Assembly (NCBI GenBank): GCA_035250975.1 | Contig: DATFEP010000029.1 | Span: 1 to 36,736, forward strand | Origin: Nitrososphaeraceae archaeon | Lineage (GTDB): Archaea; Thermoproteota; Nitrososphaeria; Nitrososphaerales; Nitrososphaeraceae | Length of the DNA stretch: 36,736 nt | Reading direction: 5' to 3' | Shown: piece by piece, positions 9,793-33,771 of the stretch | Numbering within the stretch: the stretch's first letter is position 1 | Layout of the letters: each line of letters opens with the position of its first letter | Position numbers and translations under genes: made by a program | Notes under the pieces: generated by a model | What the model was told of the DNA's origin: nothing | Databases searched by the model: none | What the model saw: the letters and a program-made list of their open reading frames with translations, nothing else

Positions 9793-10043
9793 AGATGTGA
9801 AGAGTGTTTTATGTATAATCTAACTCCAATTTAATTCGATTTACTACGGGACCGTTAGGAACAAGCAATACCAGTGAATGAATTAGACCTTGAAGACCTA
9901 TGCACAATACTAGATCTCATTGAAAATGGCCGAGAGGAAACCCAAACATTAAGAGGGATATTACTGTGACTAGTGTCTTTGATATTAACGTAATATTGAA
10001 TTGATTGGCAACCTCGGGTTTAATTAGTCCACCAGAAACCTAA
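9793..10043 (+). pseudogene. Decayed copy of a Cys-containing helical domain related to that in 10627..10893
   Basis: RCEECFMYNLTPI*FDLLRDR*EQAIPVNELDLEDLCTILDLIENGREETQTLRGILL, then in a shifted frame TSVFDINVILN*LATSGLISPPET*. This parallels TFEDCF...IIECLVNSGKI downstream. Confidence 0.5.
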
Positions 10044-12515: not shown

Positions 12516-12959
12516 CTAACCTTCTTTATCGCTTTCTTTTCCTATTTTTGAAATATGAGGTATGCGTGGAATTAAAACAGCAAAACCCGTTGCAACAACC
12601 GCTACTACATAGTATTCAAATCCTATCGCCATTCCTATAGCGGCCGAAAACCAGATACTTGCAGCTGTAGTCAAATTTGTGATTTTTCCGTCTATTTCGC
12701 CTTTTAGTATCATTCCTGCACCTAAGAATCCTATACCAGATACAATCTGCGCTGCAATTCTCGAAGATGATTGGGGATCAACTACAGAAGATAAATTTGT
12801 AAATATCATTGAACCACAAATAACTAACGCGTTCGTGCTAATTCCAGCAGGTTTTCCTCTAGACTCCCGTTCTGCACCAATAACAAAACCGGCAATTATT
12901 GAAAAAACCAGTCCTATCAAAAATTGAATTTCATTCTCTTTTATTATCCCCTCTAACAA
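12516..12959 (-). CDS. MgtC/SapB family membrane protein
   Basis: IGAERE..GKPAG, SRIAAQIVSGIGFLGAG and LTTAASIW..AAIGMAIG. N-terminal membrane domain only. Confidence 0.93.
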   Translation of the reverse strand: MLEGIIKENEIQFLIGLVFSIIAGFVIGAERESRGKPAGISTNALVICGSMIFTNLSSVVDPQSSSRIAAQIVSGIGFLGAGMILKGEIDGKITNLTTAASIWFSAAIGMAIGFEYYVVAVVATGFAVLIPRIPHISKIGKESDKEG

Positions 12960-13674
12960 TTATTGATAGCAAATAGATGAATTTTTGTATTAATAAAAAC
13001 GTTACTTTCAAAATAAATATTTTTTAATTTTCTAGCCTTTAATGGATAATTGATTATAATTAAAGGGAGTATGTTATATTATTACTGACTCAGTAATGAA
13101 TCATAGTAGATAAAATGAAATTTTCTAAGTTGAAAGAGAAAAAAAAAGACGAACGGTTATAACAAATAAAAATATTAAATAACAAAAAACAAGTAAAATT
13201 TGTGCCATAATACTAAATACATTATTTCTAAAAAATTATTAGGCTATATGCACCAGAAAAAAAATAATCTCATGTACAAAGAATAGTTGTTATGTACTCT
13301 CACTCTAACAATAAGATTTTTTGGGAATTTCGTCGGAGTAAAGATAAATGATTGTATTATGAGATATAAAGGAACTAAAATCATTTGGTAAAGATATTAC
13401 AAATTAAAATCATGTTTATTCTTTATAAAATGAAATTTACTAGCAAAAGATCGCTTTTTCAATCGTACCACTGAAATGATGTTCCATTACAAAGTTGCAT
13501 ATTACATTATAAAAGATTACGAACAATTTCAATCCGGAATATTTAATTGCATGTTAGACATCCAACGACAACATGTTCCTGATTAATAATATATGGTTAC
13601 AGAACTACCAGCGAACTTAAATGATCTAAATGTTTTTTAACCTTAGGATCCTAAAATCAAAATAAAATATACAG

Positions 13675-16458
13675 TTGTACAATAAAAAGGTAGAAACATC
13701 TGGTTTATGGCATACGGTTTCTGATCTGGATGTCATTTCAAAGTTGGGTAGTAGCTCAACAGAAGGTCTATCTGATCAAGAAGTAAAAGAAAGACGAAAA
13801 ATTTATGGTGAAAATATTCTACCTGAAATTAAACATCGTTCAAAAATTCGTATTTTATTTTCCCAATTCAAAAATTTACCAATAATATTTTTATTAATTG
13901 CAACTATTCTTGCATATTCACTGGGAAGGTACCTAGAAGCCATATCAATAATCGTGGTAGTCTTCATAACTGCAGGAATTGGTTTTGTTATGGAAAATAG
14001 TTCTGAAAGGACTATTCGATCATTGGCAAAATTAGGATCACCCAAAGCAAAAGTTCTCAGAAATGGAAAGGAATTCCAAATAAATGCCCATGAATTAGTA
14101 GTTGGAGATATAATTGAATTTGAAGCAGGAGATAGAATTCCAGCAGACTGCAGATTAATAGAATCTTTTGGATTGATTATAGATGAATCACCACTTACAG
14201 GTGAGTCTCATGGTATCCTAAAAGATTCTAGTTTAATTTGTTCCAACGATACTGAATTGGTTGAGAGAAAAAATATCTGTTACATGGGAACTATGACCCA
14301 AGAAGGAAGAGGAAAGGCTATTGTTGTAAATATCGGTAAACAAACAGAAATTGGAAGAATTGGATCGCTTTTAGAAAAGGTAACCGGTGGAAAAACACCA
14401 TTTGAAAAAAAAATTGAACAGCTTGGGAAAAAATTAGTTTTAGTCATTCTTTCCATAACATTATTTTATATAGTAATAGGTTATTTTCAACATTTTCCGA
14501 TAGGATCTTTATTTCTAAGTGGCATAGTTCTAGCTATTGCTGCTATTCCTGAGGGCTTGCCTGCTATCGCTACTATTACGCTAGCATTGGGTGTGAAGAG
14601 GATGGCAAAAAAAAATGCCTTGGTTAGAAAACTTGCAAGTGCAGAAACTTTAGGTTCAATAACAATAATATGTACTGATAAAACTGGTACATTAACCCTA
14701 AACGAACCAACTGTAAAACAAATAATTCTAGGTGACGGTACAATTTTACAAACGACAGGGTCCGGCTTTAACCCTTCTGGGAAAATATACAAGGGTATAA
14801 CTCCACCAAATGAGAAAAACATGAATGATTACTTACAAAAGACCGAAGATAAAAATCAATTACTATTATTCCAAACTATAACATTATGCAATAATTCTGA
14901 ATTATATTTTGATGGCATACATTGGAAAATTAATGGTGATACGACAGAAGGAGCTTTGATAGTTGCTTCAGAAAAGATGGGGTTTAAGAAAAGAGATTTA
15001 GAAAAGGAATATCCTCGAATATGGGAAGAACCGTTTGATTCAAAGACTAGGAGAATGATAACAGTGCATAGAAAAAAAAATAAATTATTAATTTGTATAA
15101 AAGGTGCCCCGGAAGAAGTTTTTCCATTATGCAAAAAAATAATGGAAAAAGACGAAGTAATTGTCCTTGATGAAGAAAAAAAGAAGAAATTAAATGAAAA
15201 AATCACAGATATTACTTTACATGGATATAGAAGCTTATTAATAGCCTTCATGGAGGTTGAATCGGATAGTAGTAAAATTAATTACAGTTACAAATTCATT
15301 ATACAGAACGAAGCGATCTTATTAGGACTAGTAGCATTATATGATTCTGTAAGACCAGGAGTTTTGAATGCTATAGATTTTATTAAAAAATCTAAAATCA
15401 AAATAATGATGATAACAGGAGATCATCCATTGACGGCAAAAGCAATAGCAAAGGAACTGGGAATATGGAATAATGATAACAATGTTCCAGACGAATTTAT
15501 GATGATAACAGGTAAAGAATTAGAAAAGTTATCGGTTGATAAATTGGCAGAAAAAGTTGAAAGAATAAGAGTTTTCGCCAGAACTACTCCAGAATATAAA
15601 TTAAAGATCGTTGAAGCACTACAAAGAAAGGGACACATAGTAGCAATGACTGGGGACGGAATAAATGATTCTCCAGCTTTAAAACAAGCAGACATTGGAA
15701 TAGCAATGGGAGAAAAAGGTACTGATGTTGCGAAAGAGTCTGCGGGGTTGATATTGTTAGATGATAATTTCAATACCATAACCCATGCAATCGAATTAGG
15801 TAGATTAATTTTATTCAATATAAGAAAATTTGCAATGTTTCTATTATCGTGTAATTTAAGTGAGATAATGATAATGTTATTGGGGATAGCACTATCACTA
15901 CCATTCCCCTTACTTCCTCTTCAATTACTATTAATGAATATGGTAACAGATACATTCCCAGCGTTAGCCCTTGCTGCAGAAAAGGGAAACAGAGATGAAT
16001 TGATGTTGCGTCTTCCGTCCAAAAATGAACCGGTAATTTCAAGAAAAGAATGGTATTCCATATTTATTCAATCTCTATTTATGACCATAGGCACAATTGG
16101 AATTTTTCTCTGGGCACTAAATACAGATGAAAAAAGAGATGTTGCACAAACTCTAGTTTTTGCAACCATTGGAATGACACAGATCTTGCATGTATTAAAT
16201 TATTCATCGTTACTTCGGAGATTTGTTGATAATAATCATAGAATAAATAAATATCTAATAGGTGCTATTTTACTCTCTTTTGGTATATTATTCATTGCAG
16301 TTGATGTAGAACCTCTTAATAACATCTTTGAGCTACACAGGTTAAATTTGAATGAATGGCTAATTTCATTATTTGTTTCGTCACTTTCTGTTTTTGGTGC
16401 TAGTTTAACAATTGGTATATTTAATAGTAAAATACATTTCTTAAAACGCCTTAAATAA
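13675..16458 (+). CDS. Cation-translocating P-type ATPase, P2A (SERCA/CtpF-like)
   Basis: TGES, IPEGLP, DKTGTLT, KGAPE, TGDH, TGDGIND, M5 SCNLSE and M6 NMVTDTFPALAL. Confidence 0.95.
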   Translation: MYNKKVETSGLWHTVSDLDVISKLGSSSTEGLSDQEVKERRKIYGENILPEIKHRSKIRILFSQFKNLPIIFLLIATILAYSLGRYLEAISIIVVVFITAGIGFVMENSSERTIRSLAKLGSPKAKVLRNGKEFQINAHELVVGDIIEFEAGDRIPADCRLIESFGLIIDESPLTGESHGILKDSSLICSNDTELVERKNICYMGTMTQEGRGKAIVVNIGKQTEIGRIGSLLEKVTGGKTPFEKKIEQLGKKLVLVILSITLFYIVIGYFQHFPIGSLFLSGIVLAIAAIPEGLPAIATITLALGVKRMAKKNALVRKLASAETLGSITIICTDKTGTLTLNEPTVKQIILGDGTILQTTGSGFNPSGKIYKGITPPNEKNMNDYLQKTEDKNQLLLFQTITLCNNSELYFDGIHWKINGDTTEGALIVASEKMGFKKRDLEKEYPRIWEEPFDSKTRRMITVHRKKNKLLICIKGAPEEVFPLCKKIMEKDEVIVLDEEKKKKLNEKITDITLHGYRSLLIAFMEVESDSSKINYSYKFIIQNEAILLGLVALYDSVRPGVLNAIDFIKKSKIKIMMITGDHPLTAKAIAKELGIWNNDNNVPDEFMMITGKELEKLSVDKLAEKVERIRVFARTTPEYKLKIVEALQRKGHIVAMTGDGINDSPALKQADIGIAMGEKGTDVAKESAGLILLDDNFNTITHAIELGRLILFNIRKFAMFLLSCNLSEIMIMLLGIALSLPFPLLPLQLLLMNMVTDTFPALALAAEKGNRDELMLRLPSKNEPVISRKEWYSIFIQSLFMTIGTIGIFLWALNTDEKRDVAQTLVFATIGMTQILHVLNYSSLLRRFVDNNHRINKYLIGAILLSFGILFIAVDVEPLNNIFELHRLNLNEWLISLFVSSLSVFGASLTIGIFNSKIHFLKRLK

Positions 16459-17007: not shown

Positions 17008-17442
17008 CTACAGCCCTTCACCTATAGTAGTAGTAACAGTTCTTTTTCTACCTATCGTTACAAATCTTTCGTCCAAGATTTCTTTTATTATATCAGATCT
17101 AGAACAGATTCCAATAATTCTTCCGTCATTTTCAATAACTGGGAGCATGGAAATGCTATTTTTATCCATGATATCAATTATTTTATCAACTTCTGTGTCT
17201 TGGTTTATCACTAAAGGATTAACTGTCATTATTTCATTTGCGGTAGTAATATTTAGGTCCTTACCAGATTTAATTGCACGTAGCAAATCGATAATGGTTA
17301 TAATTCCAATCACCTTTCCATCATTGTCTATGATAGGCATTCCGTTAACTACACCTAAGACAATTCTTGTAGCTATCTCTATAACAGTTACATTTGCCTT
17401 TGCACAAATTATATCTATCGACATAACATCATAGGCTTTCAT
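17008..17442 (-). CDS. Stand-alone CBS-pair protein
   Basis: AYDVMS, GMPIIDNDGKVIGIITIIDL and MLPVIENDGRIIGICSRSDI. Confidence 0.92.
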   Translation of the reverse strand: MKAYDVMSIDIICAKANVTVIEIATRIVLGVVNGMPIIDNDGKVIGIITIIDLLRAIKSGKDLNITTANEIMTVNPLVINQDTEVDKIIDIMDKNSISMLPVIENDGRIIGICSRSDIIKEILDERFVTIGRKRTVTTTIGEGL

Positions 17443-17598
17443 CCTAAACTCTCAAGTCCCACTTTAACCATGTTGATTTTAGACTGTAATATAGCGATGC
17501 CGATGATTTGGGCGTATATTTTTTGTTTTTTGTCAATTTTATTTTTGATAATTTTATCACAATGCTTATGAATGATAGTAAATATTTCTCCGTAACGA

Positions 17599-17619
17599 AT
17601 ACACTGTATTGCTCTGCAT
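17599..17619. promoter_or_regulatory. Tandem candidate operator boxes
   Basis: ATACAcTGTAT (17599-17609) and TTGCTcTGCAT (17609-17619), centres 10 bp apart, upstream of the minus-strand CBS/wHTH unit. Confidence 0.55.
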
Positions 17620-18089
17620 TAATTTGCCCTATTCAACAAATACTTATTTTCATCTTAATTTGAAAGCTAGTAACTTCCGAGTATAAAAAAATAAATCTTT
17701 GCGATTTAACTTTGATTACAAGGTTCCATTGAATTACAAGGCATTGATTGAAGAAGTCGTTGGAAATCCCAATATATGGACATGAATTCCTCGTTTGTAC
17801 CTAATATGTCAACATATGATAAGGAGTTAGCGGTATGTGTTTCATTGTAACGTTTATGATAGGACAATTCATAAGAAACAAAATATCCACTTATTAGTTC
17901 ATTTATTAGAAAGATATAGGGCTTGTCGCACCTGATGTACTTGAGAAAGACCGAAATACAGAATGATGAAAATAATAACAATAATTAATTGTCTACACAT
18001 GTATAGATGCACAATAATTTAGATAATTTAAGAGAGTTAAAAAACTAAACCTAAGAATTTCTAAACCAGTAAAAAATAATATTTACAAT

Positions 18090-19263: not shown

Positions 19264-20796
19264 ATGGACTTGGATCTAAAGAAGAAAAGAGAAGAACATC
19301 TTTTTGCAGGAGGAAAGGAAAAATTAGAAGATCGTCGAAAAAAAGGAAAATTGACTGCGTTTGATAGAATAAATTCTATTTTTGATCACGGTACCTTTAC
19401 AGAAATTGATCCATTTGTAACGCATGAATGCAGTGACTTTGATATGGACAAGAAAAAAATTCTAGGAGATGGCGTAGTTACAGGCTATGGAATGATTGAC
19501 GATAGATTGATGTATGTTTTTTCCCAAGATTTTACAACATTTGGTGGATCCTTAGGATTAGCATATTCAAGAAAGATTTGTAAAATAATGGATCTTGCAT
19601 TGAAACAAGGAGTCCCTGTAATAGGAATAAATGATTCAGGAGGGGCACGAATTCAAGAAGGAGTAGATAGTTTAGCAGGATATGCAAATATTTTTCATAG
19701 AAATGTGAAAACATCTGGAGTAGTTCCTCAAATCTCATTGATAATGGGCCCTTGTGCTGGAGGTGCGGTCTATTCGCCTGCCATAACTGATTTTATTATA
19801 ATGACGAAATCATCATTCATGTTTGTAACGGGACCCGATGTTGTCAAAGAAGTTACAAACGAGAATGTGACCTTTGAAGAGCTGGGAGGATCAGGTGTTC
19901 ATAATGTAAAAAGTGGAGTAGCCCATTTCCTTGCGGAGGGTGAACAAGATTGTTTCAAGATTTTGAGAACTCTTCTGTCTTTTCTACCTTCTAATAATCT
20001 AGAGAATCCACCTAAAATTGACTCTAAAGACGATCCGTCAAGAAGAGTTGAAGAACTTGATTCAATTCTTCCTTCTAGTCCAAATATACCCTACAATATG
20101 GAAACTGTAATTAAAAAAATTGTAGATAACGGGTTTTTCCTAGAGGTGCAAAAACATTGGTCACGCAATATAATAATTGGATTTGCTCGACTTGACGGAA
20201 ATCCTGTTGGAATCGTTGCTAACAATCCAGAAGTTTTAGCTGGCGTTCTGGACATTAATTCATGCGATAAAGGAACTCGTTTTGTACGTTTTTGTGACTG
20301 TTTTAATATTCCTCTTTTAGCTTTAGTAGACGTACCAGGTTTTTTACCGGGGACTGATCAAGAATGGGGAGGCATAATTCGTCATGGTTCTAAACTCTTA
20401 TATGCTTTCTCTGAGGCTACAGTACCCAGATTTACGGTAATTACAAGAAAAGCCTATGGAGGAGCATATTGTGTCATGAATAGTAAACATATAGGTGCAG
20501 ATTATAACTTTGCTTGGCCTACAGCTGAAATAGCAGTGATGGGAGCTGAAGGGGCAAGTAGTATAATATGGAAGAAGGAAATAGCAGAGTCTCAAAATCC
20601 AGTTGATAAAAAATCGGAATTAGTAGAGAAATACAGAATGAAATTTAGTAATCCGTATATAGCTGCCTCAAAAGGATTTTTGGATGATGTCATAGAACCA
20701 AATGAAACAAGATACAGACTAGTATCAGCGTTCAGGGCCATTTATAGAAAAAGGGAGGAAAGATCAAAAAGAAAACATGGCAATATTCCTGTTTAA
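19264..20796 (+). CDS. pccB: Acyl-CoA carboxylase carboxyltransferase subunit (PccB-like)
   Basis: DSGGARIQEG, GPCAGGAVYSPAITDF, DVPGFLPG, RKAYGGAY and C-terminal KHGNIPV. Confidence 0.93.
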   Translation: MDLDLKKKREEHLFAGGKEKLEDRRKKGKLTAFDRINSIFDHGTFTEIDPFVTHECSDFDMDKKKILGDGVVTGYGMIDDRLMYVFSQDFTTFGGSLGLAYSRKICKIMDLALKQGVPVIGINDSGGARIQEGVDSLAGYANIFHRNVKTSGVVPQISLIMGPCAGGAVYSPAITDFIIMTKSSFMFVTGPDVVKEVTNENVTFEELGGSGVHNVKSGVAHFLAEGEQDCFKILRTLLSFLPSNNLENPPKIDSKDDPSRRVEELDSILPSSPNIPYNMETVIKKIVDNGFFLEVQKHWSRNIIIGFARLDGNPVGIVANNPEVLAGVLDINSCDKGTRFVRFCDCFNIPLLALVDVPGFLPGTDQEWGGIIRHGSKLLYAFSEATVPRFTVITRKAYGGAYCVMNSKHIGADYNFAWPTAEIAVMGAEGASSIIWKKEIAESQNPVDKKSELVEKYRMKFSNPYIAASKGFLDDVIEPNETRYRLVSAFRAIYRKREERSKRKHGNIPV

Positions 20797-21051
20797 AATT
20801 TTATGCTCCAAAGATAGTCAATGGCCGTATAATTCCTTTTTTGTTTTCTTAATGTTCAGTAAAGGAAATAATAGATCCAGATATACAGAAAAGTGCAAAA
20901 TGGTAAAATATATGGTAAAGATTATAAATTCTAATAAATACAATAGAAAAAAAGCCTTAATTTATCTAAATTCTTCCATGTTTATCAAATCACAAAAATG
21001 AATTAAACGTTATTAACTATTTTATATTATTTCTTAAAATGTGGTTTCGAC

Positions 21052-22530
21052 ATGGTAAAGATTCTAATAGCAAATAGAGGAGAAATAGCTATCAGGATAG
21101 CTAAAACCTGCAAAAGAATAGGAATAGAACCATACGGTGTTTTTTCAGATGCAGATAAAGAGTCTTTACATATAAAATATTGCGATGATGCAGTTAACCT
21201 AGGAGGTTCTATGCCGAATGAAAATTATCTTTGTATTGATAAAGTGATTGATGCTGCTAAAAAACTAGACTGCGACATGATTCACCCAGGTTATGGATTT
21301 CTTTCAGAAAATCATAATTTTGTCAAGGCATGTAAAGAAGAAGGCATAGTTTTCATAGGACCTTCATTTAAAGCAATGACGCTTTCAGGAGACAAAGTAG
21401 AAGCTAGAAAGATTGCATCAAAATTAGCTGAGACGGTTAAAGGAGAAGAAGTAATGGATGAGGAACAGGCATCTAGAGTAGCAGAAAGAATAGGATATCC
21501 AGTAATCATTAAAGCAGTAGAGGGAGGAGGTGGCAGAGGTCTAAGGATAGCAGGATCTCAAGAAGAGTTAATTGATCTCTTTTTATTGTCCAAAAACGAA
21601 TCAAAAATAAGTTTTGGTTCAGATAGACTGTATCTCGAAAAATATTTAGCAAATCCTAAGCATATAGAAGTTCAAATACTCGCAGACTATAATAACACAG
21701 TTCATCTTGGAGAAAGAGAATGTTCTATTCAAAGAAGATATCAAAAACTGATTGAGGAAACACCCTCTCCTACTTTAACAAAAGAGACTAGAGATGAAAT
21801 GACAGAGACGGCTATAAAGATAATTAATGAAATTGGATATGATAATGCAGGCACGGTAGAATTTCTCTACAAAGAAGGAAGATTTTATTTTATGGAAATT
21901 AATGCTAGAATTCAAGTAGAACACCCCATAACTGAGGAGGTAACAGGAATAGACATTGTTGAACAACAAATTCGCATAGCTACTGGTGATGGACTTACCA
22001 TAAAGCAAGAGGATATAAACCCCAAAGGACATGCTATAGAATGCAGAATTAACGCTGAAAATCCTATAACTTTTGCTCCTTATCCAGGTAAAATTGATCA
22101 ATTTATTCCACCTATGGGAGAGGGTATAAGAGTTGATACAGCATTATATGAAGGATATTCCATTCCTGTGTTCTATGATTCTCTTATTGCTAAATTAGTA
22201 TGTCTTGGCCATTGCAGGGATGAAGCAATAGATAGGATGAAAAAATCTCTACTGTCCTTCAGAATATCAGGAATTCCGTCGACCATTTCTTTTCACATAT
22301 CTGCCATGAACGATAACGATTTTTTAACTGGTAAATATGATACATCATTCATCAACAAAATGAAACACTTTTCACCAAGAAATGGTGAAATAGCTGCTGC
22401 AATATTCTCAATGCTACCTAAGAAAATTCAATTCATAAAAACTCAAGAAATCCGAGATGCTTGGATACAACGAAAATTGGATTTGAATGAGACGAGTTAT
22501 TTAAATGATAACTGGAGATGGTCAACGTAA
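21052..22530 (+). CDS. accC: Biotin carboxylase subunit
   Basis: ANRGEIA, HPGYGFLSEN, GGGGRG, ECSIQRRYQKLIEE and EINARIQVEHP. Confidence 0.93.
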   Translation: MVKILIANRGEIAIRIAKTCKRIGIEPYGVFSDADKESLHIKYCDDAVNLGGSMPNENYLCIDKVIDAAKKLDCDMIHPGYGFLSENHNFVKACKEEGIVFIGPSFKAMTLSGDKVEARKIASKLAETVKGEEVMDEEQASRVAERIGYPVIIKAVEGGGGRGLRIAGSQEELIDLFLLSKNESKISFGSDRLYLEKYLANPKHIEVQILADYNNTVHLGERECSIQRRYQKLIEETPSPTLTKETRDEMTETAIKIINEIGYDNAGTVEFLYKEGRFYFMEINARIQVEHPITEEVTGIDIVEQQIRIATGDGLTIKQEDINPKGHAIECRINAENPITFAPYPGKIDQFIPPMGEGIRVDTALYEGYSIPVFYDSLIAKLVCLGHCRDEAIDRMKKSLLSFRISGIPSTISFHISAMNDNDFLTGKYDTSFINKMKHFSPRNGEIAAAIFSMLPKKIQFIKTQEIRDAWIQRKLDLNETSYLNDNWRWST

Positions 22531-22962
22531 TTGAGGGTAAAAGTTAACGATAATGAATATGATATCGAAATTATCGGTGAAAAGGTTATAGTTAATAATA
22601 TTAATTTTGATTTAAAAAGATATAGAGATAAAATTACATTAGGTAATGATACATTTTATTTGGACTTTGTAGAAGAAACTGAACCTTCATTAATGATAAT
22701 TAATGGAGTAAGTTATGTTGTATCAAAAGATTTTTCAAATTACGGGTTGGAAAAAGAAATACGCGCTCCAATAAATGGAAAAATCACAGATCTATTGGTT
22801 AATAATAATGATCTTATAGAAAAGGATCAAACTATTTTGGTTCTTGAGGCTATGAAAATGGAGAATCAAATAAAATCTCATTTAAAAGGAGTAATTGAGA
22901 AAATATATGTATCCAAGGACCAATTAGTAAAAAAAGGAGATATCCTTGTGAAATTTGGATGA
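22531..22962 (+). CDS. accB: Biotin carboxyl carrier protein
   Basis: EAMKMEN biotinylation motif. Its TTG start directly abuts the biotin carboxylase stop. Confidence 0.9.
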   Translation: MRVKVNDNEYDIEIIGEKVIVNNINFDLKRYRDKITLGNDTFYLDFVEETEPSLMIINGVSYVVSKDFSNYGLEKEIRAPINGKITDLLVNNNDLIEKDQTILVLEAMKMENQIKSHLKGVIEKIYVSKDQLVKKGDILVKFG

Positions 22963-24441: not shown

Positions 24442-24682
24442 GAAATAATTATAATTTGAGATACTGAATATGCCAATAATCTGAAATATCGGCTAAAATT
24501 GGAAGAATTAATTACTTTATCTCTTAATATAATTATTTCAGTGAATTTTTTTCTATTCTCAAAACCAATCCAAATAAAGAAAAAACAATATATGAAAACT
24601 AAATCTTATAATTTCAAAAAATACTATAAAATTTAGGAAGAGTTTTTATTGTTAATTTTCATGAATTTAACTAAATCTTCAT

Positions 24683-24693
24683 TTTCAGTGTAA
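24683..24693. promoter_or_regulatory. Candidate operator box
   Basis: TTTCAgTGTAA centred about 28 bp upstream of TTTTAAG (24713-24719). Confidence 0.5.
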
Positions 24694-24765
24694 TGCACAA
24701 TAAACAAAGGTCTTTTAAGTTACTGTATAATCTTTACTATTAGAAAATTGCGCAAATCAGAAAAC

Positions 24766-24894
24766 ATGATCTTAAATATAGGATCAGTTAGGAATCCACT
24801 TTGCACAGATCCACATTGCTATAAACGATCTGGAAATCATACTTGGATTATACCAGGTTATAATCTTGAAATAAATCAAATGAATTTAAAATGA
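24766..24894 (+). CDS. Small Cys/His protein, 42 aa (not in ORF track)
   Basis: MILNIGSVRNPLCTDPHCYKRSGNHTWIIPGYNLEINQMNLK*. The stop overlaps the next start (ATGA), and there is an alternative TTG start at 24748. Confidence 0.5.
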   Translation: MILNIGSVRNPLCTDPHCYKRSGNHTWIIPGYNLEINQMNLK

Positions 24895-25277
24895 TTGAAA
24901 GGAATTTCATGAAACAAATTTGCCTGCAAATGCTCGACAACAATAAAAAAATAGATTTTGTTGGGATAATAGGAAAAAATGGTAAGCTAATTACTGGTAG
25001 AAGTAACAATATGGTTAAAGACCTGACCTTTGATTACAAGATAAGCCAAGAATTACCTCCGGTGCTTGAAATATTTGAATTAATGAAAAATTGTGATTTT
25101 GAAAAGGTTTGGCATGAAGGAGAATTAGCATATTCGACTATCGAGTCATGTAAATTAATATTAGTTATTTTGCCACTTACTAAGAACGGACAAGAATTCA
25201 TTTGTTTTTTGTTAACTAATGGTCAAAATAAAGACAATGTTGAACCTATGATTGAAGAAGTTTTATTTGGGTTATAA
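24891..25277 (+). CDS. Roadblock/profilin-like thaumarchaeal protein (DUF6659-like)
   Basis: C..ML....KIDFVGIIGKNGKLITG pattern followed by GELAYSTIE...LILVILPL strands. Confidence 0.65.
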   Translation: MIERNFMKQICLQMLDNNKKIDFVGIIGKNGKLITGRSNNMVKDLTFDYKISQELPPVLEIFELMKNCDFEKVWHEGELAYSTIESCKLILVILPLTKNGQEFICFLLTNGQNKDNVEPMIEEVLFGL

Positions 25278-26592: not shown

Positions 26593-27180
26593 TTACCGGA
26601 TTTTGACTACTTTTAGTTTCACGCCCTTTCTCAGATCCTGAATGATCTTTTCTATTTGTTTAACTTGAACCAGATAATTGCTTTTCATATAATCTAGACC
26701 AGACTTGTGTTTTTGAAAAGAAGGAGCCGCAATTCCATTCTCTGCTATTATAATATCATATCCAGTGAGGAACGCGTCATACACGGAATGTTTAACACAT
26801 ATATCGGTATGAATTCCTGTAAAGATTATTGATTCCACACCTTTTCCTTTGTAAAGTGAATCAAGTACCTTTGCCAAATTAGTTCTATGAAATGCACTGT
26901 AACTATTTTTCAAAATTATATGGTCATTATCTTGTGGTTTTAATTCATTTATAACTTCCGATCCTTTTGTATCTTTCATTGCATGAACTCCCCATATTTG
27001 TAATTCCCTGTCAGATCGAATATGAGAATCATTGCAATACACTATAGGAATATTATGTTGCCTAGCAAAATCAAGCAATAATTTGATGTTAGGTATTATT
27101 GTTTGTACTTTAGAAAATTTTAGTTTTCCATAAACAAAATCATTTAACATATCTAGCACCAAGATTACTATTCTTTTCAA
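26593..27180 (-). CDS. pncA: Isochorismatase-family cysteine hydrolase, probable nicotinamidase
   Basis: DMLNDF, metal ligands DSH and WGVH, catalytic K (KNSYSAF) and C (GIHTDICV). It lies directly downstream of pncB. Confidence 0.8.
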   Translation of the reverse strand: MKRIVILVLDMLNDFVYGKLKFSKVQTIIPNIKLLLDFARQHNIPIVYCNDSHIRSDRELQIWGVHAMKDTKGSEVINELKPQDNDHIILKNSYSAFHRTNLAKVLDSLYKGKGVESIIFTGIHTDICVKHSVYDAFLTGYDIIIAENGIAAPSFQKHKSGLDYMKSNYLVQVKQIEKIIQDLRKGVKLKVVKIR

Positions 27181-27276
27181 AACAAGATATATTACTGGAG
27201 TTGATCTATTTATATGGTTTAATCTATTATTTAATATAGATAACCAATACAGGAAACGTAATAGAAAAAGAAGATG

Positions 27277-28665
27277 TTAGTTGAAAGATTCAATTGAATT
27301 TTTTAATTCCTTACTTAGGTATACTGGAAAGGTCTTTAATTCAGGATCAAGTCTTTTAAATTTTCTAGGTAATATAGACATCTGATATTCGTAATATTTC
27401 TTAATTTCTGGAATTGTAGGAAGATTTATCATTATATTACCATTTTTAATAAATTGTTTCAACAGAGGTATTCCATAAGCAATTTTTTCATATTCAAGAG
27501 CTAAGATATCTTTATAAAATTTGTCGTTTTTAATAATTCTAAAAATTTGTTTGGGTCCTGGAAAAGAGATCTTGTCTAATGATTTCTTCATTTTATATAT
27601 TATTTCATATTTTTGTTTATCCTGATCCGAGTATTTTTTGATAGCAACTAATTTATAAACACCGTTCAAGGCGGGATCGTCTCTAGATGTTACCAATTCA
27701 GTACCTACACCAAAGGAATCAATGGGAATTTTTTTCTTTACCAATTTTTTGATTGTATATTCATTAAGATCTCCACTCACCATTATTTTTGTTCCTTTGT
27801 AACCGGATTTGTCTAGAATTTTCCTAATCTTCCTACACAAATAAAATAAATCTCCACTGTCAATTCGTATACCACCACACTTTACTCGATGTTTGATAAT
27901 TTTTTTTATTGCGTTTATCGAATCATAAGTATCTATTAATAAAAAACTATCCGGAAAGATAGTCACAAACTTTTTGAATGCCTCTATTTCCTCTTCAAAA
28001 CTCATTATATATGAATGTGCCATGGTCCCGGCTGCTGGAATTCCATACCGAAACGAAGCAAGAGTATTTGAGGTGCTTTTACATCCTGCGATATAACTAG
28101 CTCTGCTTGCAAATAATGCTGCATAAGGGCTATGTGCTCTTCGAAACCCGAATTCTATCACAGTTTTGTCCCCAGCTGAATTAACTATTCGTGATGCTTT
28201 TGAAGCAATTAATGTTTGAAAATTCATCATAGAAAGAACATATGTTTCAAATAATTGAGCCTGAATAATAGGAGCTTCGATTCTTAAAAACGGCTCATTT
28301 GGAAAGAGAATTGTACCTTCAGGTACTGCCCATAAGTCTCCAGTAAATTTAAGATTTGCCAAATAATCTAAGAAGTTCTTATCGTTTTTAAATGAATTAT
28401 GAGTTTTAAGAAAATCAATCTGTGTACGAGTAAATTTGAAATTCATGAGGAAAGATACTATTTGTTCCAATCCGCATACTACCAAATAATTTCTGTTATT
28501 TGGAAGTTTTCTAACGTACATTTCAAATTGCCCAATAGTATCATTCATACCTGAATTGAAATATGCTGATGCCATAGTTAATTCATAAAAATCCGTTGCT
28601 AAAGCCATATTATTTTCGTAATTGCATGATGAAATGGTCACGGGATATCTATAATAGGAATCCAC
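27277..28665 (-). CDS. pncB: Nicotinate phosphoribosyltransferase
   Basis: TDFYELTM, EFGFRRAH, GTMAHSY, LIDTYD, IRIDSGD, SGDLNE, FGVGT and GVYKLV. Confidence 0.95.
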   Translation of the reverse strand: MDSYYRYPVTISSCNYENNMALATDFYELTMASAYFNSGMNDTIGQFEMYVRKLPNNRNYLVVCGLEQIVSFLMNFKFTRTQIDFLKTHNSFKNDKNFLDYLANLKFTGDLWAVPEGTILFPNEPFLRIEAPIIQAQLFETYVLSMMNFQTLIASKASRIVNSAGDKTVIEFGFRRAHSPYAALFASRASYIAGCKSTSNTLASFRYGIPAAGTMAHSYIMSFEEEIEAFKKFVTIFPDSFLLIDTYDSINAIKKIIKHRVKCGGIRIDSGDLFYLCRKIRKILDKSGYKGTKIMVSGDLNEYTIKKLVKKKIPIDSFGVGTELVTSRDDPALNGVYKLVAIKKYSDQDKQKYEIIYKMKKSLDKISFPGPKQIFRIIKNDKFYKDILALEYEKIAYGIPLLKQFIKNGNIMINLPTIPEIKKYYEYQMSILPRKFKRLDPELKTFPVYLSKELKNSIESFN

Positions 28666-28764: not shown

Positions 28765-29877
28765 TCATCGGACATGAAGAATTTTGTCTAATGCTTTAAC
28801 TATATCAGTTTTAGTAACTATTCCGACCAGCTTATTGTTGGAATTAACAACCGGTAATCCACTAATTCCATTTCTTGCCATTATTTTTGCTGCGTCCGCG
28901 AGATCGGTTTTGTCTGATACAGTTATAGGCTCTTTTATCATAACATCTTTTGCTACCAACATCGAGGTGACCCTTGTCGGAAGATATCGCTGTTCAAGAT
29001 ATTTTGAAGATACTTTTTTAGAAAGTATTGAAGGTGATTTGTCACGTCGGAACATAAAACTGACTGGTAATAGGTCGCGAATAGTCACTATACCAAGCGG
29101 TTTATTATTTTCTACTACAATAAGCCTAGATATTTTATGGATATTCATTAATAAAAGTATTATGTGAATATTTTCGTATAGATCGACAGTGTGAACTTTT
29201 TTTGTCATCCAATCTTTTGAAATATATTTATTCATATAATGATATGCATACAACTCTACCAAATCGCTCTTGGTAATTATTCCCTTTTGGATTCCTTCGT
29301 CATCAAGGAGTACCAATGAGCTTATACTATTTTTTAACATTAAAGTCGTACAATTTTTTATTTCTGAATTTTGATTAATGGTAACTAGATTTTTTTTCAT
29401 TACCTCTTTTACCATAATTTCGTAAAGTTTTTTTTCGGTAAAAGAGTCATAAAGATACTTGGAAATGTCCTTTTCAGTAATAATACCAATTGGTCTCTGA
29501 TCTTTAGACACAACTATTCTGCTAATGTTATATCTGATCATAAAATTTCTTGCATCCAAGAGAGTATTATTTGGTTTTAACGAAATTATTTCTCTGCTAA
29601 CATCGTAAGCATCTAGTAAAAAATTGTCGTAATGGAGTGATTTTTTCTTCAAGTAAAGATTCCCCTTAGCTGTAGCGATATACTCCTCGCTTGGTCCAAA
29701 ATATTGTAATAATCCTCGATTTACCAATTCTGCAGTGTATCTTCTAACTTGTTGATGAGAAATATTTAATTCTTGTCGAATTTTTTTCTTTGTTAAAGGT
29801 TCGGTAGCTAATCCTAAGATTTTAATAAAAATTCTTTCTTGTCCACCTAAATTTATCGGTATCTTGATTATTTCATC
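28765..29877 (-). CDS. Winged-helix plus four CBS domain protein, putative adenylate-sensing regulator (start codon unresolved)
   Basis: The frame is open for 50 codons upstream of the called TTG 29727: DEIIKIPINLGGQERIFIKILGLATEPLTKKKIRQELNISHQQVRRYTAE-LVNRGLLQYFGPSEEYIATAKGNLYL. This is an archaeal wHTH pattern and is followed by four CBS repeats. Confidence 0.8.
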   Translation of the reverse strand, partial: DEIIKIPINLGGQERIFIKILGLATEPLTKKKIRQELNISHQQVRRYTAELVNRGLLQYFGPSEEYIATAKGNLYLKKKSLHYDNFLLDAYDVSREIISLKPNNTLLDARNFMIRYNISRIVVSKDQRPIGIITEKDISKYLYDSFTEKKLYEIMVKEVMKKNLVTINQNSEIKNCTTLMLKNSISSLVLLDDEGIQKGIITKSDLVELYAYHYMNKYISKDWMTKKVHTVDLYENIHIILLLMNIHKISRLIVVENNKPLGIVTIRDLLPVSFMFRRDKSPSILSKKVSSKYLEQRYLPTRVTSMLVAKDVMIKEPITVSDKTDLADAAKIMARNGISGLPVVNSNNKLVGIVTKTDIVKALDKILHVR

Positions 29878-29918
29878 TCACTGCATATTGTTAGAAAATT
29901 TATTATAAAAAGAATATG

Positions 29919-29940
29919 GTTCAATGATATTGCAGTGCAA
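29919..29940. promoter_or_regulatory. Tandem candidate operator boxes upstream of the wHTH-CBS gene
   Basis: GTTCAaTGATA (29919-29929) and the perfect TTGCAgTGCAA (29930-29940). The minus-strand TATA is TTTATAA at 29909-29903. Confidence 0.7.
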
Positions 29941-30019
29941 ATTTAAAAAACTCATTAAATATTCTTTACATCTTACCTGAGAAAAATTAAAGATCGGTAA
30001 AAAAATAATGGTAAAAAAT

Positions 30020-30538
30020 TTATTTTACATCTATTTTGACTGATTCTGTTTGCTCTGGCTTGGTGGGTACCTTTTTTGGAATAGAAATGTGTAAAACGCC
30101 ATTTTTCATTTCAGCTTCGATATTTTTAGGTATTATTTCTTCAGGAAGGGGAAGTTCTCTTTGAAATGATTTATACGATCTTTCGTTATAGAGATAATTC
30201 TTTCTTTTCTCTTCAGTTTTTTCAGTTTGCTCTCCAGATACTAGAATCGAATTTTTTGTCGCATTGATTTGGATTTTTTCCTTGGCGATACCCGGGGTTT
30301 CCAGTGTCAATTCATATTTATCTCCTTTGTCTATAAGATCACATAAAGGCATTCTCACTTCTAGTTCTTCATATTTAGGAAATCCAATTGTTGGAAATCT
30401 CCAATCCCAAAGTGAGGGAAATCGTGGTAAAAATGCACTCTCAATATCCCTTCTAAAATTTTCAAAGATATCATCCATTCGAGCAGGGTAACGATTATCT
30501 TTTATTTTCTTTTTCTCTATTGAATTTGGTTTATCCAT
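30020..30538 (-). CDS. Small heat-shock protein (Hsp20/alpha-crystallin)
   Basis: PLCDLIDKGDKYELTLETPGIAKEKI, ERSYKSFQRELPLPEEI and AEMKNGVLHISIPK, with a C-terminal IDV motif. Confidence 0.95.
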   Translation of the reverse strand: MDKPNSIEKKKIKDNRYPARMDDIFENFRRDIESAFLPRFPSLWDWRFPTIGFPKYEELEVRMPLCDLIDKGDKYELTLETPGIAKEKIQINATKNSILVSGEQTEKTEEKRKNYLYNERSYKSFQRELPLPEEIIPKNIEAEMKNGVLHISIPKKVPTKPEQTESVKIDVK

Positions 30539-30575
30539 ATTTGAAAGGAGTAGTCAATTTATTTAATTACTAAGC

Positions 30576-30598
30576 ATTCAGTGTATTGCAATGCAATA
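30576..30598. promoter_or_regulatory. Tandem candidate operator boxes upstream of hsp20
   Basis: ATTCAgTGTAT (30576-30586) and the perfect 15-bp palindrome TATTGCAaTGCAATA (30584-30598). The minus-strand TATA is TTAAATA at 30566-30560. Confidence 0.75.
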
Positions 30599-30860
30599 AA
30601 GTATCACCAGAATTATAACACCAACAAAGATAGATTTTTCGTTCAAATTAATAATACAATGCACTTTATTCATAAATACAATATTATTCTTAACCTTTAT
30701 ACCGTATGCATAAGCAAATGATTTTATTCAATTATATATTTGAGCGAGAACTTATTTGATGTTCTACTTTCTTGTACTTAAAACATGATCATCGGACTTC
30801 GTTCTATTTTACCTATAGATTACTTTTTTTATTATGTTTTTTATTTCCAGTCAACTACTT

Positions 30861-31931
30861 TTAAAATGATAATGTTTTCATAACAATATCCCAAGGAGTC
30901 ACTATTTTATTTCTGTTTTGCAAAATTAAATATGGATGTCTAGGATCCAACAAAAGTTCTGCAGCTTGTCTTACAGTAGTATCATCTTTTACCTCAGAGA
31001 TATTAGAGATAGTAAGATTTTGTTTAATTTTTTTTTGTCCAATGATATCGTAATCAATTTTTTTTCTAGTTTCTAGTGTCTCTATGGGGTCACGTTTATT
31101 TTTCACGACCATTCTTGTAGCAGGAGATAATAGAAATTCAAGGATATTCCTATCATTTATAATACCGACAACTTTCGATCGTTTGTCCATTACCCCTAAG
31201 TTACGAATATTTTTTCTAAACATAACAGATAGAACATTTTGTAGCACATCATCTTGCTTCACTGATATCAAGTCCGAAGCAACGTCTTTTGCTGGCAAAT
31301 TTTTTATTTTTTCAATATCGATATCAAGAATGCTATTACTAGCATCTTTGGTATTTTCATATTTTTTTATTCCGGTAAATAATTTTAAAAAATCTCTAAC
31401 AGTAATCGACGCCACTGCTTTGTGATATTTTGGATTATTATTGTAGACAGTTTCTACTATAGGAATAAAGGCAAATTTTGTTTTTTTAAAGACTTCTAAA
31501 ACATTCCTAATGGTTGAATCTAGCTCTATAATTAGATTTTCAGTTATTTTTTCCATTATCTCAGATGCTTTTCTAACATATAGAGATTCGGGATAGTAGG
31601 ATACAGGTAGGTATGAATTGGGATTGATAATACATTGAATAATTTGTTTACTACCTATCCTACCTAAAACACTTTGAATGGTAATTTGTTGTTCTCCTCT
31701 TTGTGCGATTCCGTTTTGTTCTACTTGTTTTTGCTTTTTAATTTGATTTTCTAAAACCACTATCAGTCCATCTATGTATATCTGCGGACCTATTGCAAGA
31801 AATGTAGCAAGTTGAACTAAATTTGAGTTTAGATAAGTAAACGAAATTGGACGTTTGGTTAGATGAGGAAATGTCTCAATAATGGAACCATCTAAACTAA
31901 AATGGGAGATAGTCATGTGACCAAATTTCAT
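30861..31931 (-). CDS. Multi-CBS domain protein
   Basis: KASEIMEK...FAFIPIV...ITVRDFL, IRNLGVMDKRSKVVGIINDRNIL and IVTPWDIV. It overlaps the upstream CBS gene, and the start may be the MTISH ATG at 31916. Confidence 0.85.
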   Translation of the reverse strand: MKFGHMTISHFSLDGSIIETFPHLTKRPISFTYLNSNLVQLATFLAIGPQIYIDGLIVVLENQIKKQKQVEQNGIAQRGEQQITIQSVLGRIGSKQIIQCIINPNSYLPVSYYPESLYVRKASEIMEKITENLIIELDSTIRNVLEVFKKTKFAFIPIVETVYNNNPKYHKAVASITVRDFLKLFTGIKKYENTKDASNSILDIDIEKIKNLPAKDVASDLISVKQDDVLQNVLSVMFRKNIRNLGVMDKRSKVVGIINDRNILEFLLSPATRMVVKNKRDPIETLETRKKIDYDIIGQKKIKQNLTISNISEVKDDTTVRQAAELLLDPRHPYLILQNRNKIVTPWDIVMKTLSF

Positions 31932-32442
31932 TTAGCTTGTTGATAAACGATTCATCGTAAAGAGGGATTTGATTCTCAATTAAAAGGGGCGATTGATTGA
32001 TTGTCTGAATGAGATATCTAACAATATCAGTAAAGGAAATTATTCCTATTATATGATCGTTTGAATCTAAGATCGGAAGTCTTTTAATATTTTTCAAATT
32101 CATATACTCTAACGCATCTTTTATAGAGTTAGTGGAGTTAATTGTTATTAACGGTTTACTCATTATTTCACCTGCTAGGCTGAATTTTAAAATGGAACCA
32201 GAACCTAAAAATCTGACAATATCCCTTTCAGTAATTATTCCGGCAGTATACAATAGATTATCTTCTTTTCTCTCAAAAGAAATATTTTCAGATTCATTCA
32301 ATAATTGCTCCTCTACAATTATTATACTTCCTATTTTCTTTTCATACATTTTTTGGCAGATATTTTGAATATTTTGATCATCAGATGCTATTTCAACATT
32401 TTTTGCCATAATTGCAGTGACAGAAGTTTGATCCATACTCAT
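31897..32442 (-). CDS. CBS-pair protein
   Basis: KIGSIIIV...GIITERDIV and MSKPLITI...IKRLPILDSNDHIIGIISFTDIV. Confidence 0.92.
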   Translation of the reverse strand: MSMDQTSVTAIMAKNVEIASDDQNIQNICQKMYEKKIGSIIIVEEQLLNESENISFERKEDNLLYTAGIITERDIVRFLGSGSILKFSLAGEIMSKPLITINSTNSIKDALEYMNLKNIKRLPILDSNDHIIGIISFTDIVRYLIQTINQSPLLIENQIPLYDESFINKLNEIWSHDYLPF

Positions 32443-32482
32443 AATAAGACTATCAATAATTCAATATATAAGGTTAGTATGG

Positions 32483-32503
32483 TTTCATTGCATTTAACTG
32501 CAA
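32483..32503. promoter_or_regulatory. Tandem candidate operator boxes upstream of the CBS-CBS unit
   Basis: TTTCAtTGCAT (32483-32493) and TTTAAcTGCAA (32493-32503). The minus-strand TATA is TTATATA at 32471-32465. Confidence 0.65.
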
Positions 32504-32728
32504 TATATTAAATTAGTTATTCCATATTTCTTGTGTTAAGGTTAACAGTAGCATCCTATGAAAAAGAATTTTGGAGAAAAAGAATTTTGGAGTTTAAATG
32601 TTATGTTTTGCTGCTATCTAATAATTTGAAACCAGTTTCATCCATTAACCACATATTGAGAAAAAGGTATACAACAAATCTGTTAAGTACACTATCTTTT
32701 TAAATTGCCAATTAATATCTTGTCATAT

Positions 32729-33334
32729 ATGTCAGATTCTTACCCTTCCCATTATTTACAAAAATCAAAGAAAAAAAAATCCAGATGCATAACCTTTAGG
32801 CTGGAGGCAGGAATAGTTGAAGAATTAACAAAGGAATCTGAACAAAAAGAAATCTCATTAAATGTTTTGGTTAATCAAATCTTGAGAAGATATTCTGAAT
32901 GGGATAGATATGAAAATAAACTAGGGATAATTCCTGTACCAAGAGCAATAATGACAGCATTAATAGAAAAGAGCTTACAAATAGGTAAAGAAGCTGGAAT
33001 AAAAGACCTAGAGACGCACAGAAATCTACTAATTAAAGAGGCTGCAACAGTTGCTTTTGAATCGCTAAGAGAATCAGTATTATTTATGAAAAATCAATTT
33101 AATTTATTTAGTGTTTTATCTATTTTGGAAGAATACATGAAAGTATGTGGAATAAATTCAGAACATAAATTTGATTCAGGAAGACGTCATATCTTTACAC
33201 TTCAACATGATATGGGTGAAAATTGGTCATTGTTTTCAAAAGAACTACTTGAGAAGATTTTTTTTGAATTAGCCCAGTGTAAAGTTAAAATTACTTATAC
33301 TCATAGTACTTTAATAGCAGAGGTTTCATTGTAA
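32729..33334 (+). CDS. Thaumarchaeal RHH-domain protein with C-terminal alpha/beta domain, putative regulator
   Basis: ITFRLEAGIVEELTKESEQKEISLNVLVNQILRRYSEWD is an RHH pattern, and QHDMGENWSLF is a motif I recall from this family. ATG 32729 fits the TATA TTTTAAA at about 32698-32704. Confidence 0.8.
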   Translation: MSDSYPSHYLQKSKKKKSRCITFRLEAGIVEELTKESEQKEISLNVLVNQILRRYSEWDRYENKLGIIPVPRAIMTALIEKSLQIGKEAGIKDLETHRNLLIKEAATVAFESLRESVLFMKNQFNLFSVLSILEEYMKVCGINSEHKFDSGRRHIFTLQHDMGENWSLFSKELLEKIFFELAQCKVKITYTHSTLIAEVSL

Positions 33335-33349
33335 ATTATAAAAAAAATC

Positions 33350-33360
33350 TTGCATTGCAA
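33350..33360. promoter_or_regulatory. Perfect candidate operator box
   Basis: TTGCAtTGCAA centred 18 bp upstream of TTAAATA (33370-33376), before the SnoaL-like gene. Confidence 0.7.
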
Positions 33361-33405
33361 TCCTATTAGTTAAATAGTTTTGATACGAGATTATCTCATT
33401 TCAAG

Positions 33406-33771
33406 ATGAGACAAGACCATATCGATATTGTTAAAAATTTTTTTTCATTAATAGAACAAAGAGATATTGATGGTATAGTCGATTTGTTTGATGAACATTG
33501 CATAGTTTATGAACCATTCAGTAAAGAAAATGGTTTACAAAAAAATAATTTGAAACCATTTTTCGAAGTTCTTGTTAATACTAACAACGATATAACAAGA
33601 AAAGTTAGTTTTCTGGACAAGCATAATAAACTTAATGAGATTGAAACTTTGGTTACTTTTAACAAAGACGGAATGTTACGTGCAAAATTTATTTTCAATA
33701 TAAAACATTATTCAGATGATTTTGGAATAGAATTGAATAAAATCGATACTTTACATATAGACTTCATTTGA
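33406..33771 (+). CDS. NTF2/SnoaL-like protein
   Basis: IVKNFFSLIEQRDIDGIVDLFDEHCIVYEP N-terminal pattern. Confidence 0.8.
   Translation: MRQDHIDIVKNFFSLIEQRDIDGIVDLFDEHCIVYEPFSKENGLQKNNLKPFFEVLVNTNNDITRKVSFLDKHNKLNEIETLVTFNKDGMLRAKFIFNIKHYSDDFGIELNKIDTLHIDFI

Follow-up and report, generated by a model that had tools for sequence, protein, structure and literature searches.

Ptr2, TFB-RF1 and GvpE are served by archaeal upstream activating sites (UAS), which lie just 5' of the transcription factor B (TFB) recognition element (BRE) and the TATA box. A site of comparable position is described here for a 36,736-nucleotide stretch of DNA from a Nitrososphaeraceae archaeon (contig DATFEP010000029.1), called the window throughout, and for its relatives. 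The element is an array of TGCA units separated by single bases. In most of the soil ammonia-oxidising Nitrososphaeraceae examined, it has a fixed place shortly ahead of TATA in the promoters of heat-shock, universal-stress and CBS genes. Judged from sequence comparison, its boxes are likely to be the operator of one sequence-specific transcription factor that would control a conserved stress regulon in this family. Like the known archaeal sites, the array is symmetric and keeps a fixed distance immediately upstream of BRE and TATA, but it differs from them in sequence, in its 5-bp units and in being frequently shared by divergent promoters. It may be likened functionally to an archaeal UAS, and its build recalls the CopG operator and the eukaryotic heat-shock element.

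The eukaryotic heat-shock element is formed by arrays of nGAAn pentamers bound by heat-shock factor (HSF). The TGCA array shares with it at least three contiguous 5-bp units, their variable number and a location upstream of the TATA box of a small heat-shock gene. In contrast, its unit is TGCA, which is its own inverted repeat, and GAA/TTC occur as outer flanks only. The likeness is one of analogy. No HSF relative was seen, none having been looked for. Phr of Pyrococcus and HSR1 of Archaeoglobus reportedly exert helix-turn-helix control of hsp20 via a palindromic site that overlaps the transcription start and represses. The TGCA array has an unrelated consensus and does not overlap the start; it lies upstream of TATA and directly upstream of the expected BRE, which in leaderless genes places it roughly between -61 and -37, counted from the start codon.

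According to two reports, the CopG operator holds two self-palindromic TGCA copies, each taken by one ribbon-helix-helix (RHH) dimer, and further dimers bind cooperatively (PMC2724298, PMC3413123). Self-palindromic TGCA boxes are also the substance of the array, and one of two candidate regulators encoded in the window (candidate 1, discussed below) has a probable RHH domain. The CopG boxes are 5 bp apart within a repressing element of 13 bp, which covers part of the -35 box. The units of the array, in contrast, are 1 bp apart (alternate units 6 bp) and stand upstream of an archaeal TATA box, so the spacing of CopG is not reproduced. The precedent shows that an RHH ribbon can read TGCA; that candidate 1 would do so does not follow from it.

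Ammonia-oxidising archaea drive soil nitrification, and we know of no genetic system for them. Searches of the open-access literature, subscription journals not being covered, yielded no description of the motif and no factor-operator pair for these organisms. A cis-element that is conserved, has a defined geometry and recurs before the same kinds of gene, with two candidate regulators close by, offers a handle on how they sense and survive oxygen, energy or heat stress. The element allows targets to be predicted from sequence in uncultured Nitrososphaeraceae, and many CBS-pair, Usp and SnoaL-like genes whose role is not known gain a functional setting from it.

The TGCA array

An earlier note on the window, made from its sequence, had pointed to the palindromic box TTGCANTGCAA (TTGCAnTGCAA), with three perfect intergenic copies where well under one was expected, and to relaxed copies of the form WTDCANTGHAW. 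Both observations are borne out. Perfect boxes occur at 29930, 30586 and 33350, all three of them intergenic, whereas 100 dinucleotide-preserving shuffles of the window give a mean of 0.04 and a largest count of 1. The relaxed form has 18 matches against 4.98 expected, a number that none of the 100 shuffles reaches. Boxes with up to two mismatches fall within the 25% of the window scored as non-coding in 17 of 32 cases. Four pairs stand in tandem exactly 10 bp apart, with one base in common (30576/30586, 32483/32493, 29920/29930 and 17599/17609), which agrees with the spacing of one helical turn reported before.

The comparison with relatives used 53 loci, designated by L numbers, each comprising up to 10 kb on either side of an hsp20 gene found by alignment and search with hsp20 homologues. 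They are mostly from Nitrososphaeraceae, Nitrososphaera or Nitrososphaerales; the exceptions are L053, from a Nitrosopumilaceae metagenome-assembled genome (MAG), L010 (Thermoproteota) and L050 (Thaumarchaeota). The genome of the window has about 30% GC, and two Nitrososphaeraceae/Nitrososphaerales MAGs have an hsp20 that shares 96% and 95% identity, respectively, with that of the window. Comparison of the hsp20 upstream regions shows that the box consists of two units of a longer head-to-tail run, typically of two to four TGCA-n pentamers, the full form of which is the 25-bp palindrome GAA-TGCA-n-TGCA-n-TGCA-n-TGCA-TTC. The 11-bp palindrome is real, but it is a fragment: the complete palindrome is made of TGCA pentamers and extends over as many as 25 bp.

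Arrays, defined as at least three TGCA-n units with at most one mismatch, number 95 in the 729,259 bases of the 53 loci and the window, about 25-fold more than the 2 to 4 found in five first-order Markov control sequences. They have three units in 56 cases, four in 36 and five or six in 3, and at least one is present in 36 of the 54 sources. The word TGCA is short and self-complementary, and 29 of the 95 arrays lie inside long open reading frames (ORFs), as might be expected if the array were not regulatory at all and represented a chance AT-rich palindrome, a dispersed repeat, a restriction or methylation target or an RNA hairpin. The excess over the Markov controls makes such an origin hardly credible, as do the fixed position relative to the start codon and the conservation across genomes of 26-60% GC while the flanks diverge. 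The window gave no match in an Rfam scan and no tRNA in a tRNA scan, which also speaks against an RNA element.

Promoter geometry

A logo of 61 sites, anchored at the promoter-proximal end, reads GAA-TGCA-n-TGCA-w-TGCA-c-TGCA-wT-C, with C at +2 in 53 of the 61. The TATA core, AAATA, occupies positions +12 to +16. The array ends about 9 nt (8-10 nt) ahead of the TATA stretch and overlaps neither this stretch nor the start site. Six good sites of the window have the C at +2 and a TATA-like stretch that starts +9 to +12 from the promoter-proximal end. The distances of 18-21 and 28-31 between box and TATA centres that had been reported for the window agree with a four-pentamer register at these six sites.

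The fixed promoter spacing was checked against start codons, with ORFs called mechanically from the first ATG and each array paired with the first ATG that opens an ORF of at least 50 aa. The start codon lies exactly 39 nt from the array end, the mode, in 25 of 125 pairs and 38-41 nt from it in 50 (binomial P ~4e-42); the spacing thus holds. The amo genes are described as having TATA 23-24 nt before the start codons and conserved upstream motifs among which the TGCA array is not found (PMC3379541). The array-to-ATG distance of about 39 nt fits leaderless transcripts and matches this TATA-to-ATG spacing. Divergent ORF starts lie 28-50 nt away on both sides of 22 of the 95 arrays (at 36-47 nt in 16), which suggests that one palindrome serves two divergent promoters.

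In characterised archaeal systems, a site wholly upstream of BRE is the position of an activator. Because the array occupies this position, and because its symmetric placement between divergent genes suits recruitment on two sides, its factor is probably an activator. The predicted factor would bind the array directly upstream of BRE and most likely activate by helping to recruit TFB and the TATA-binding protein (TBP). Two dimers probably cooperate one helical turn apart, each reading one 9-bp TGCA-n-TGCA box, or dimers might read alternate units. The signal would be low oxygen, energy stress or heat.

The same geometry has to be weighed against a repressor operator, in which, much as in classical heat-shock control, a repressor beside BRE and TATA would block TFB and TBP until stress released it. 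This is a serious rival, although we hold it to be rather unlikely. The array ends only about 9 nt before TATA, and a steric clash with TFB is conceivable, yet the site lies wholly upstream of the BRE position and covers neither TATA nor the start. Among the genes behind arrays, those for Hsp20 are the most frequent (26 of 124 ORFs), and the known prokaryotic heat-shock regulators Phr, HrcA, HspR and CtsR are repressors. A symmetric placement between divergent TATA boxes, as in 22 of the 95 arrays, fits recruitment on both sides. Two possible models for the factor are described as repressors: CopG, an RHH reader of TGCA boxes (PMC2724298), and MsvR, a V4R-domain regulator of methanogens (PMC3729527).

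The distance to TATA, fixed within a few bases, would also suit an extension of the core promoter that is recognised by a specialised paralogue of TFB or TBP, and a haloarchaeal heat-shock promoter is reported as steered by general factors (PMC2396416). Such an element is very unlikely here, as the palindrome serves both orientations, comprises 2 to 6 units and, at 8-10 nt from TATA, falls outside the stretch that BRE usually covers. We know of no general factors that read a symmetric site of 19-25 bp.

Conservation in related genomes

A regulon of the kind proposed implies conservation in orthologous promoters, and this is found. Within 250 nt upstream of hsp20, 44 of the 53 loci have a match to (TGCAN)3 with at most two mismatches, against 4.9% of 2120 random 250-nt segments drawn from these loci. 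The element is kept in genomes of 26-60% GC, including hsp20 upstream regions of 46-60% GC. In the window and L001-L004, the hsp20 array and its TATA box stay aligned while the flanks diverge, and the box at 33350 with its TATA is invariant in the same five genomes between diverged flanks. Nor is the motif equally frequent in coding and unrelated DNA, an outcome that would have spoken against regulation: 66 of the 95 arrays fall within the 33% of bases outside ATG-initiated ORFs of at least 100 aa.

The same motif was considered for Nitrosopumilaceae-like loci and rejected, as neither L050 nor L053 has an array. These two loci share another conserved block just upstream of hsp20 (L050 ~9730-9793, L053 ~7975-8039). 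It ends in the TATA-like sequence TTTYTAAG and may be a counterpart element.

Target genes

Pfam was run on the 124 ORFs that start 10-140 nt from an array. Their distribution over families is as follows.

Hsp20: 26 of 124 ORFs
CBS: 15 of 124 ORFs
Usp: 10 of 124 ORFs
SnoaL_2: 6 of 124 ORFs
Pribosyltran (PRTase): 4 of 124 ORFs
Zn-ADH: 4 of 124 ORFs
P-II: 4 of 124 ORFs
Cupredoxin: 3 of 124 ORFs
NAPRTase: 2 of 124 ORFs
Other families: 10 of 124 ORFs
No family: 40 of 124 ORFs

Families of the stress type account for 74 of the 84 array-linked ORFs with a family but for only 48 of 112 control ORFs (Fisher P = 3e-11). The controls come from a random 150 of the 509 other ORFs of at least 100 aa in the same loci, a set that surely includes true targets with weaker sites or within operons. 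The contrast persists without Hsp20 (48/58 versus 43/107, P = 1e-7). The 48 control ORFs comprise 28 CBS, 7 Usp, 5 Hsp20, 3 NAPRTase, 2 SnoaL_2, 2 PRTase and 1 ADH; the other 64 with a family are mostly metabolic or housekeeping.

The DosR dormancy regulon is mycobacterial and is governed by a bacterial response regulator with an unrelated 20-bp site. Its gene content resembles that of the window and its relatives, where Hsp20/alpha-crystallin, several Usp, CBS-pair, NAPRTase, PRTase and P-type ATPase genes are found. The signal may be alike as well, given the hypoxia response of marine relatives (see below). The parallel is a functional analogy only, and homology is not argued from it.

Genes of the target families are induced together in published work on marine relatives, which bears indirectly on co-expression in the Nitrososphaeraceae. 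In sponge-associated Thaumarchaeota under hypoxia, two regulators, two CBS genes and a PII protein were raised along with UspA and HSP20 (bioRxiv 10.1101/2023.02.27.530229). In Nitrosopumilus maritimus, HSP20, four UspA and two CBS proteins were up at 32 C (PMC12974425). For Nitrososphaera viennensis, one paper mentions an Hsp20 as having a part in energy stress (PMC13674081).

Support for a regulon and points against it

Over-representation, conservation, fixed position and recurrent targets together support the proposal of the earlier note that TTGCAnTGCAA marks an undescribed archaeal regulon. Several observations weigh against a single stress regulon under an activator. The element is absent at 9 of the 53 hsp20 loci, including L049 (Nitrosocosmicus sp. 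FF01), L050 and L053, and 29 of the 95 arrays lie mostly inside ATG-initiated ORFs of at least 100 aa. Many CBS and Usp genes of the gene islands have no strict array (28 CBS and 7 Usp among the 150 control ORFs). In the window itself, box and position weight matrix (PWM) scans gave no convincing site for the genes of Usp, NAPRTase and PRTase; the last two have no array in their promoters there, though orthologues elsewhere have one. All loci are centred on hsp20, so that the Hsp20 counts reflect this design and the array frequencies are those of hsp20 loci. The set also includes closely related genomes (for instance L036/L040/L046, and the window with L001 and L002), and raw counts accordingly exceed the number of independent events. 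The published co-induction comes from the Nitrosopumilaceae side, where the motif is not seen. Finally, it is from the position of the site, and from that only, that activation is inferred over repression.

Sites of the window

The promoter sites of the window and the genes they are assigned to are the following.

30577 to 30595, minus strand: hsp20 promoter array, units TGCA, TGCA, TACA and TGAA, with the perfect box 30586-30596 and the relaxed box 30576-30586
30020 to 30538, minus strand: hsp20, small heat-shock protein, the anchor target
29921 to 29939, minus strand: promoter array of the winged helix-turn-helix (wHTH)-4xCBS gene, two perfect units (box 29930-29940), then degenerate TATC and TTGA
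32484 to 32502, minus strand: CBS181-CBS356 promoter array, units TGCA, TTAA, TGCA and TGAA
30861 to 32442, minus strand: target operon of CBS181 (31897-32442) and CBS356 (30861-31931), with a gene overlap of 35 nt
33351 to 33359, plus strand: two-unit box in the gap that separates the RHH stop codon from the SnoaL-like gene, perfect copy 33350-33360
33406 to 33771, plus strand: SnoaL/NTF2-like target gene of 121 aa
17600 to 17618, minus strand: four-unit array inside the palindrome 17597-17621, firing leftwards
24684 to 24702, plus strand: array upstream of a 48-aa ORF and a 128-aa gene, units TTCA, TGTA, TGCA and AATA

The sites were scored with a symmetrised PWM built from 53 distinct sites; the window, L001 and L002 contributed none of these. 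Four positions of the window (three distinct sites) reach at least 14 bits, against 0.13 expected. The top match is the hsp20 site (30574-30598, 22.3 bits). Its TATA core lies at 30560-30564, and 38 nt separate the end of the array from the ATG at 30538. The palindrome 17597-17621, ahead of the CBS144 operon, scores 21.6 bits and has its TATA core at 17583-17587 (+12). Exactly 39 nt beyond the array, a GTG at 17560 begins an ORF of 38 aa, which adjoins CBS144 (17008-17442) directly. The site 24681-24705 scores 16.2 bits, is conserved in L001 and L002 and precedes a TATA-like stretch at 24712-24719; downstream lie the 48-aa ORF (24748-24894) and the 128-aa gene (24891-25277). The CBS181 site (32481-32505) scores 10.3 bits and is nearly invariant among the window, L001 and L002. 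It is followed by TATA at 32464-32471 and, at a distance of 41 nt, by the ATG at 32442.

On the four-unit matrix, the sites at 29930 and 33350, which have two units, stay below 6 bits; both of their units are perfect and in the right register. For the box at 29930, which L001 retains and which has one mismatch in L002, TATA lies at ~29900-29910, and the ATG (29886) is 34 nt away from the end of the array. The site at 33350 has the C at +2; its TATA core spans 33372-33376, and the gene starts with the ATG at 33406. A further site, placed by the earlier note before a Usp gene at 11874, was not recovered: there is no box there with up to two mismatches and no PWM match of at least 6 bits, and the Usp gene probably starts at ATG 11819 and not at 11894.

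Small ORFs stand between an array promoter and the gene behind it in two places, at 17444-17560 on the minus strand (38 aa) and at 24748-24894 on the plus strand (48 aa). They could be leader peptides, small proteins or mere 5' leaders. In the intergenic region between CBS181 and the RHH gene, a stretch of 16-17 nt is duplicated in tandem (32560-32592). The duplication is absent from L001 and L002, where the alignment has a gap of about 20 columns.

Candidate regulators

Two genes of the window encode proteins either of which may be the factor.

32729 to 33334, plus strand: candidate regulator 1, 201 aa, probable N-terminal RHH and C-terminal alpha/beta domain of possibly sensor-like fold
28765 to 29886, minus strand: candidate regulator 2, putative winged-helix N-terminus followed by four CBS domains

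Orthologues of candidate 1 are found in 17 of the 53 loci. A site of TGCA units lies within about 80 nt after its stop codon, before the SnoaL-like gene, in 18 of 18 sources, with no mismatch to the two-unit form in 10, one in 6 and two in 2. Self-regulation of the RHH gene through an array was considered and discarded, as its own upstream regions in the 18 sources contain none.

A search returned 829 relatives of candidate 1. The 120 listed are all hypothetical or unnamed save one predicted HicB-family nuclease, and the organisms named among these 120 are Nitrososphaeraceae or Nitrososphaera. The wider family has 1461 representatives at E <=0.001. The protein of the window matches CopG_antitoxin weakly (E = 0.037); among 85 relatives, 31 match CopG_antitoxin and 16 match HicB (E <=0.01), and in the Atlas a cluster of RHH_1 proteins comes up at 0.94. 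A PDB search with the family profile gave sub-significant RHH matches (Arc, MazE7 and 2k1o, an entry named only 'Putative' which we take to be an RHH protein) and otherwise chance matches only.

In structure prediction, the homodimer of candidate 1 passed its controls (0.71 against 0.00 for the best control), a mark that 20 of 30 solved one-chain pairs reach but only 1 of 23 single chains. At least 97% of contacts recur between runs, and the partner has a predicted local distance difference test (pLDDT) score of 81 or more. Residues 20-25 of the two copies are predicted to pair as an antiparallel ribbon. Because RHH dimers are already among the solved structures, the pass shows a likeness to RHH dimers and not binding.

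A first model of the monomer, built from 17 sequences, was discarded as too weak (pLDDT 66.7); the model used here was built from 85 sequences and has a pLDDT of 93.3. Among natural proteins, it resembles the phenol-sensor domains of PoxR, MopR and DmpR, Bet3/TRAPP and H-NOX at template-modelling (TM) scores of 0.39-0.46, which rank below those of designed proteins. None of the 85 family members matches Pfam V4R. His160 is near-invariant across the family, which has a conserved QHD-G-xWS motif. The V4R/Bet3/H-NOX-like fold is a weak lead from modelling, not a family assignment.

MsvR, as described in PMC3729527, joins a DNA-binding domain to a V4R-type sensor that responds to the redox state. 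Candidate 1 would be alike in its one-component architecture, and its model resembles V4R, Bet3 and H-NOX folds. The two differ in their DNA-binding domains (helix-turn-helix in MsvR, a probable RHH in candidate 1) and in the residues conserved (cysteines versus histidines); the fold match is weak (TM 0.40-0.46), with no Pfam V4R. That candidate 1 is the regulator which reads the arrays is a tentative proposal.

A more elaborate scheme takes the protein encoded at 32729-33334 as a family-specific one-component sensor of RHH and V4R/H-NOX-like build, with a near-invariant histidine in its ligand domain, which would read TGCA arrays next to BRE as a dimer of dimers, driving a bidirectional dormancy programme under low oxygen, NO or energy stress. 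The programme would comprise Hsp20, Usp, CBS, P-II and NAD-salvage genes in soil ammonia-oxidising archaea. It would be an archaeal parallel to the DosR regulon that arose by convergence, and its operator would have the build of a heat-shock element. Taken as a whole, this scheme is improbable.

Candidate 2 has its four CBS domains at E = 1.6e-55. Its wHTH part matches HVO_A0261_N (2.2e-5) and HTH_45 (8.8e-5), all below the curated Pfam cut-offs. The gene adjoins hsp20 in about ten loci. Conserved self-regulation was considered and set aside, since the promoter box is confined to the clade of the window: upstream of the wHTH-CBS gene, it is absent in L034, L028 and L027, and L013 has a single TGCA unit. 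That candidate 2 reads the arrays seems doubtful. A regulator encoded elsewhere is about as likely as the two candidates together.

The wHTH-4xCBS gene starts with ATG CAG TGA (29878-29886, minus strand) and thus has an in-frame stop at codon 3, after which the winged-helix frame offers no ATG, GTG or TTG before residue 51, the residue at which the Atlas entry of the protein begins. The arrangement ATG CAG TGA is kept in L001 (~10656-10664) and L002 (~6869-6877); the start in L004 (~3590) is GTG TGA, and L003 has an ordinary ATG. Read-through of the TGA, a non-canonical start (ATA/ATC) or re-initiation are possible.

Directly behind an array, the Nitrososphaera loci L040 (235-414, minus strand) and L046 (249-410, minus strand) encode small helix-turn-helix proteins of 54-60 aa. 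They are possibly a further regulator or a target.

Other genes of the window

The stretch 19264-22962 contains genes for the carboxyltransferase, biotin carboxylase and biotin carrier of an acetyl/propionyl-CoA carboxylase, with no array ahead of them. Genes for this enzyme are expected for the carbon-fixation cycle of ammonia-oxidising archaea. The regions 11346-16458 and 26593-28665, which along with Hsp20 and CBS recall the DosR gene set, contain genes for Usp, MgtC, a type-II P-type cation ATPase and NAPRTase as well as an isochorismatase/nicotinamidase-like gene.

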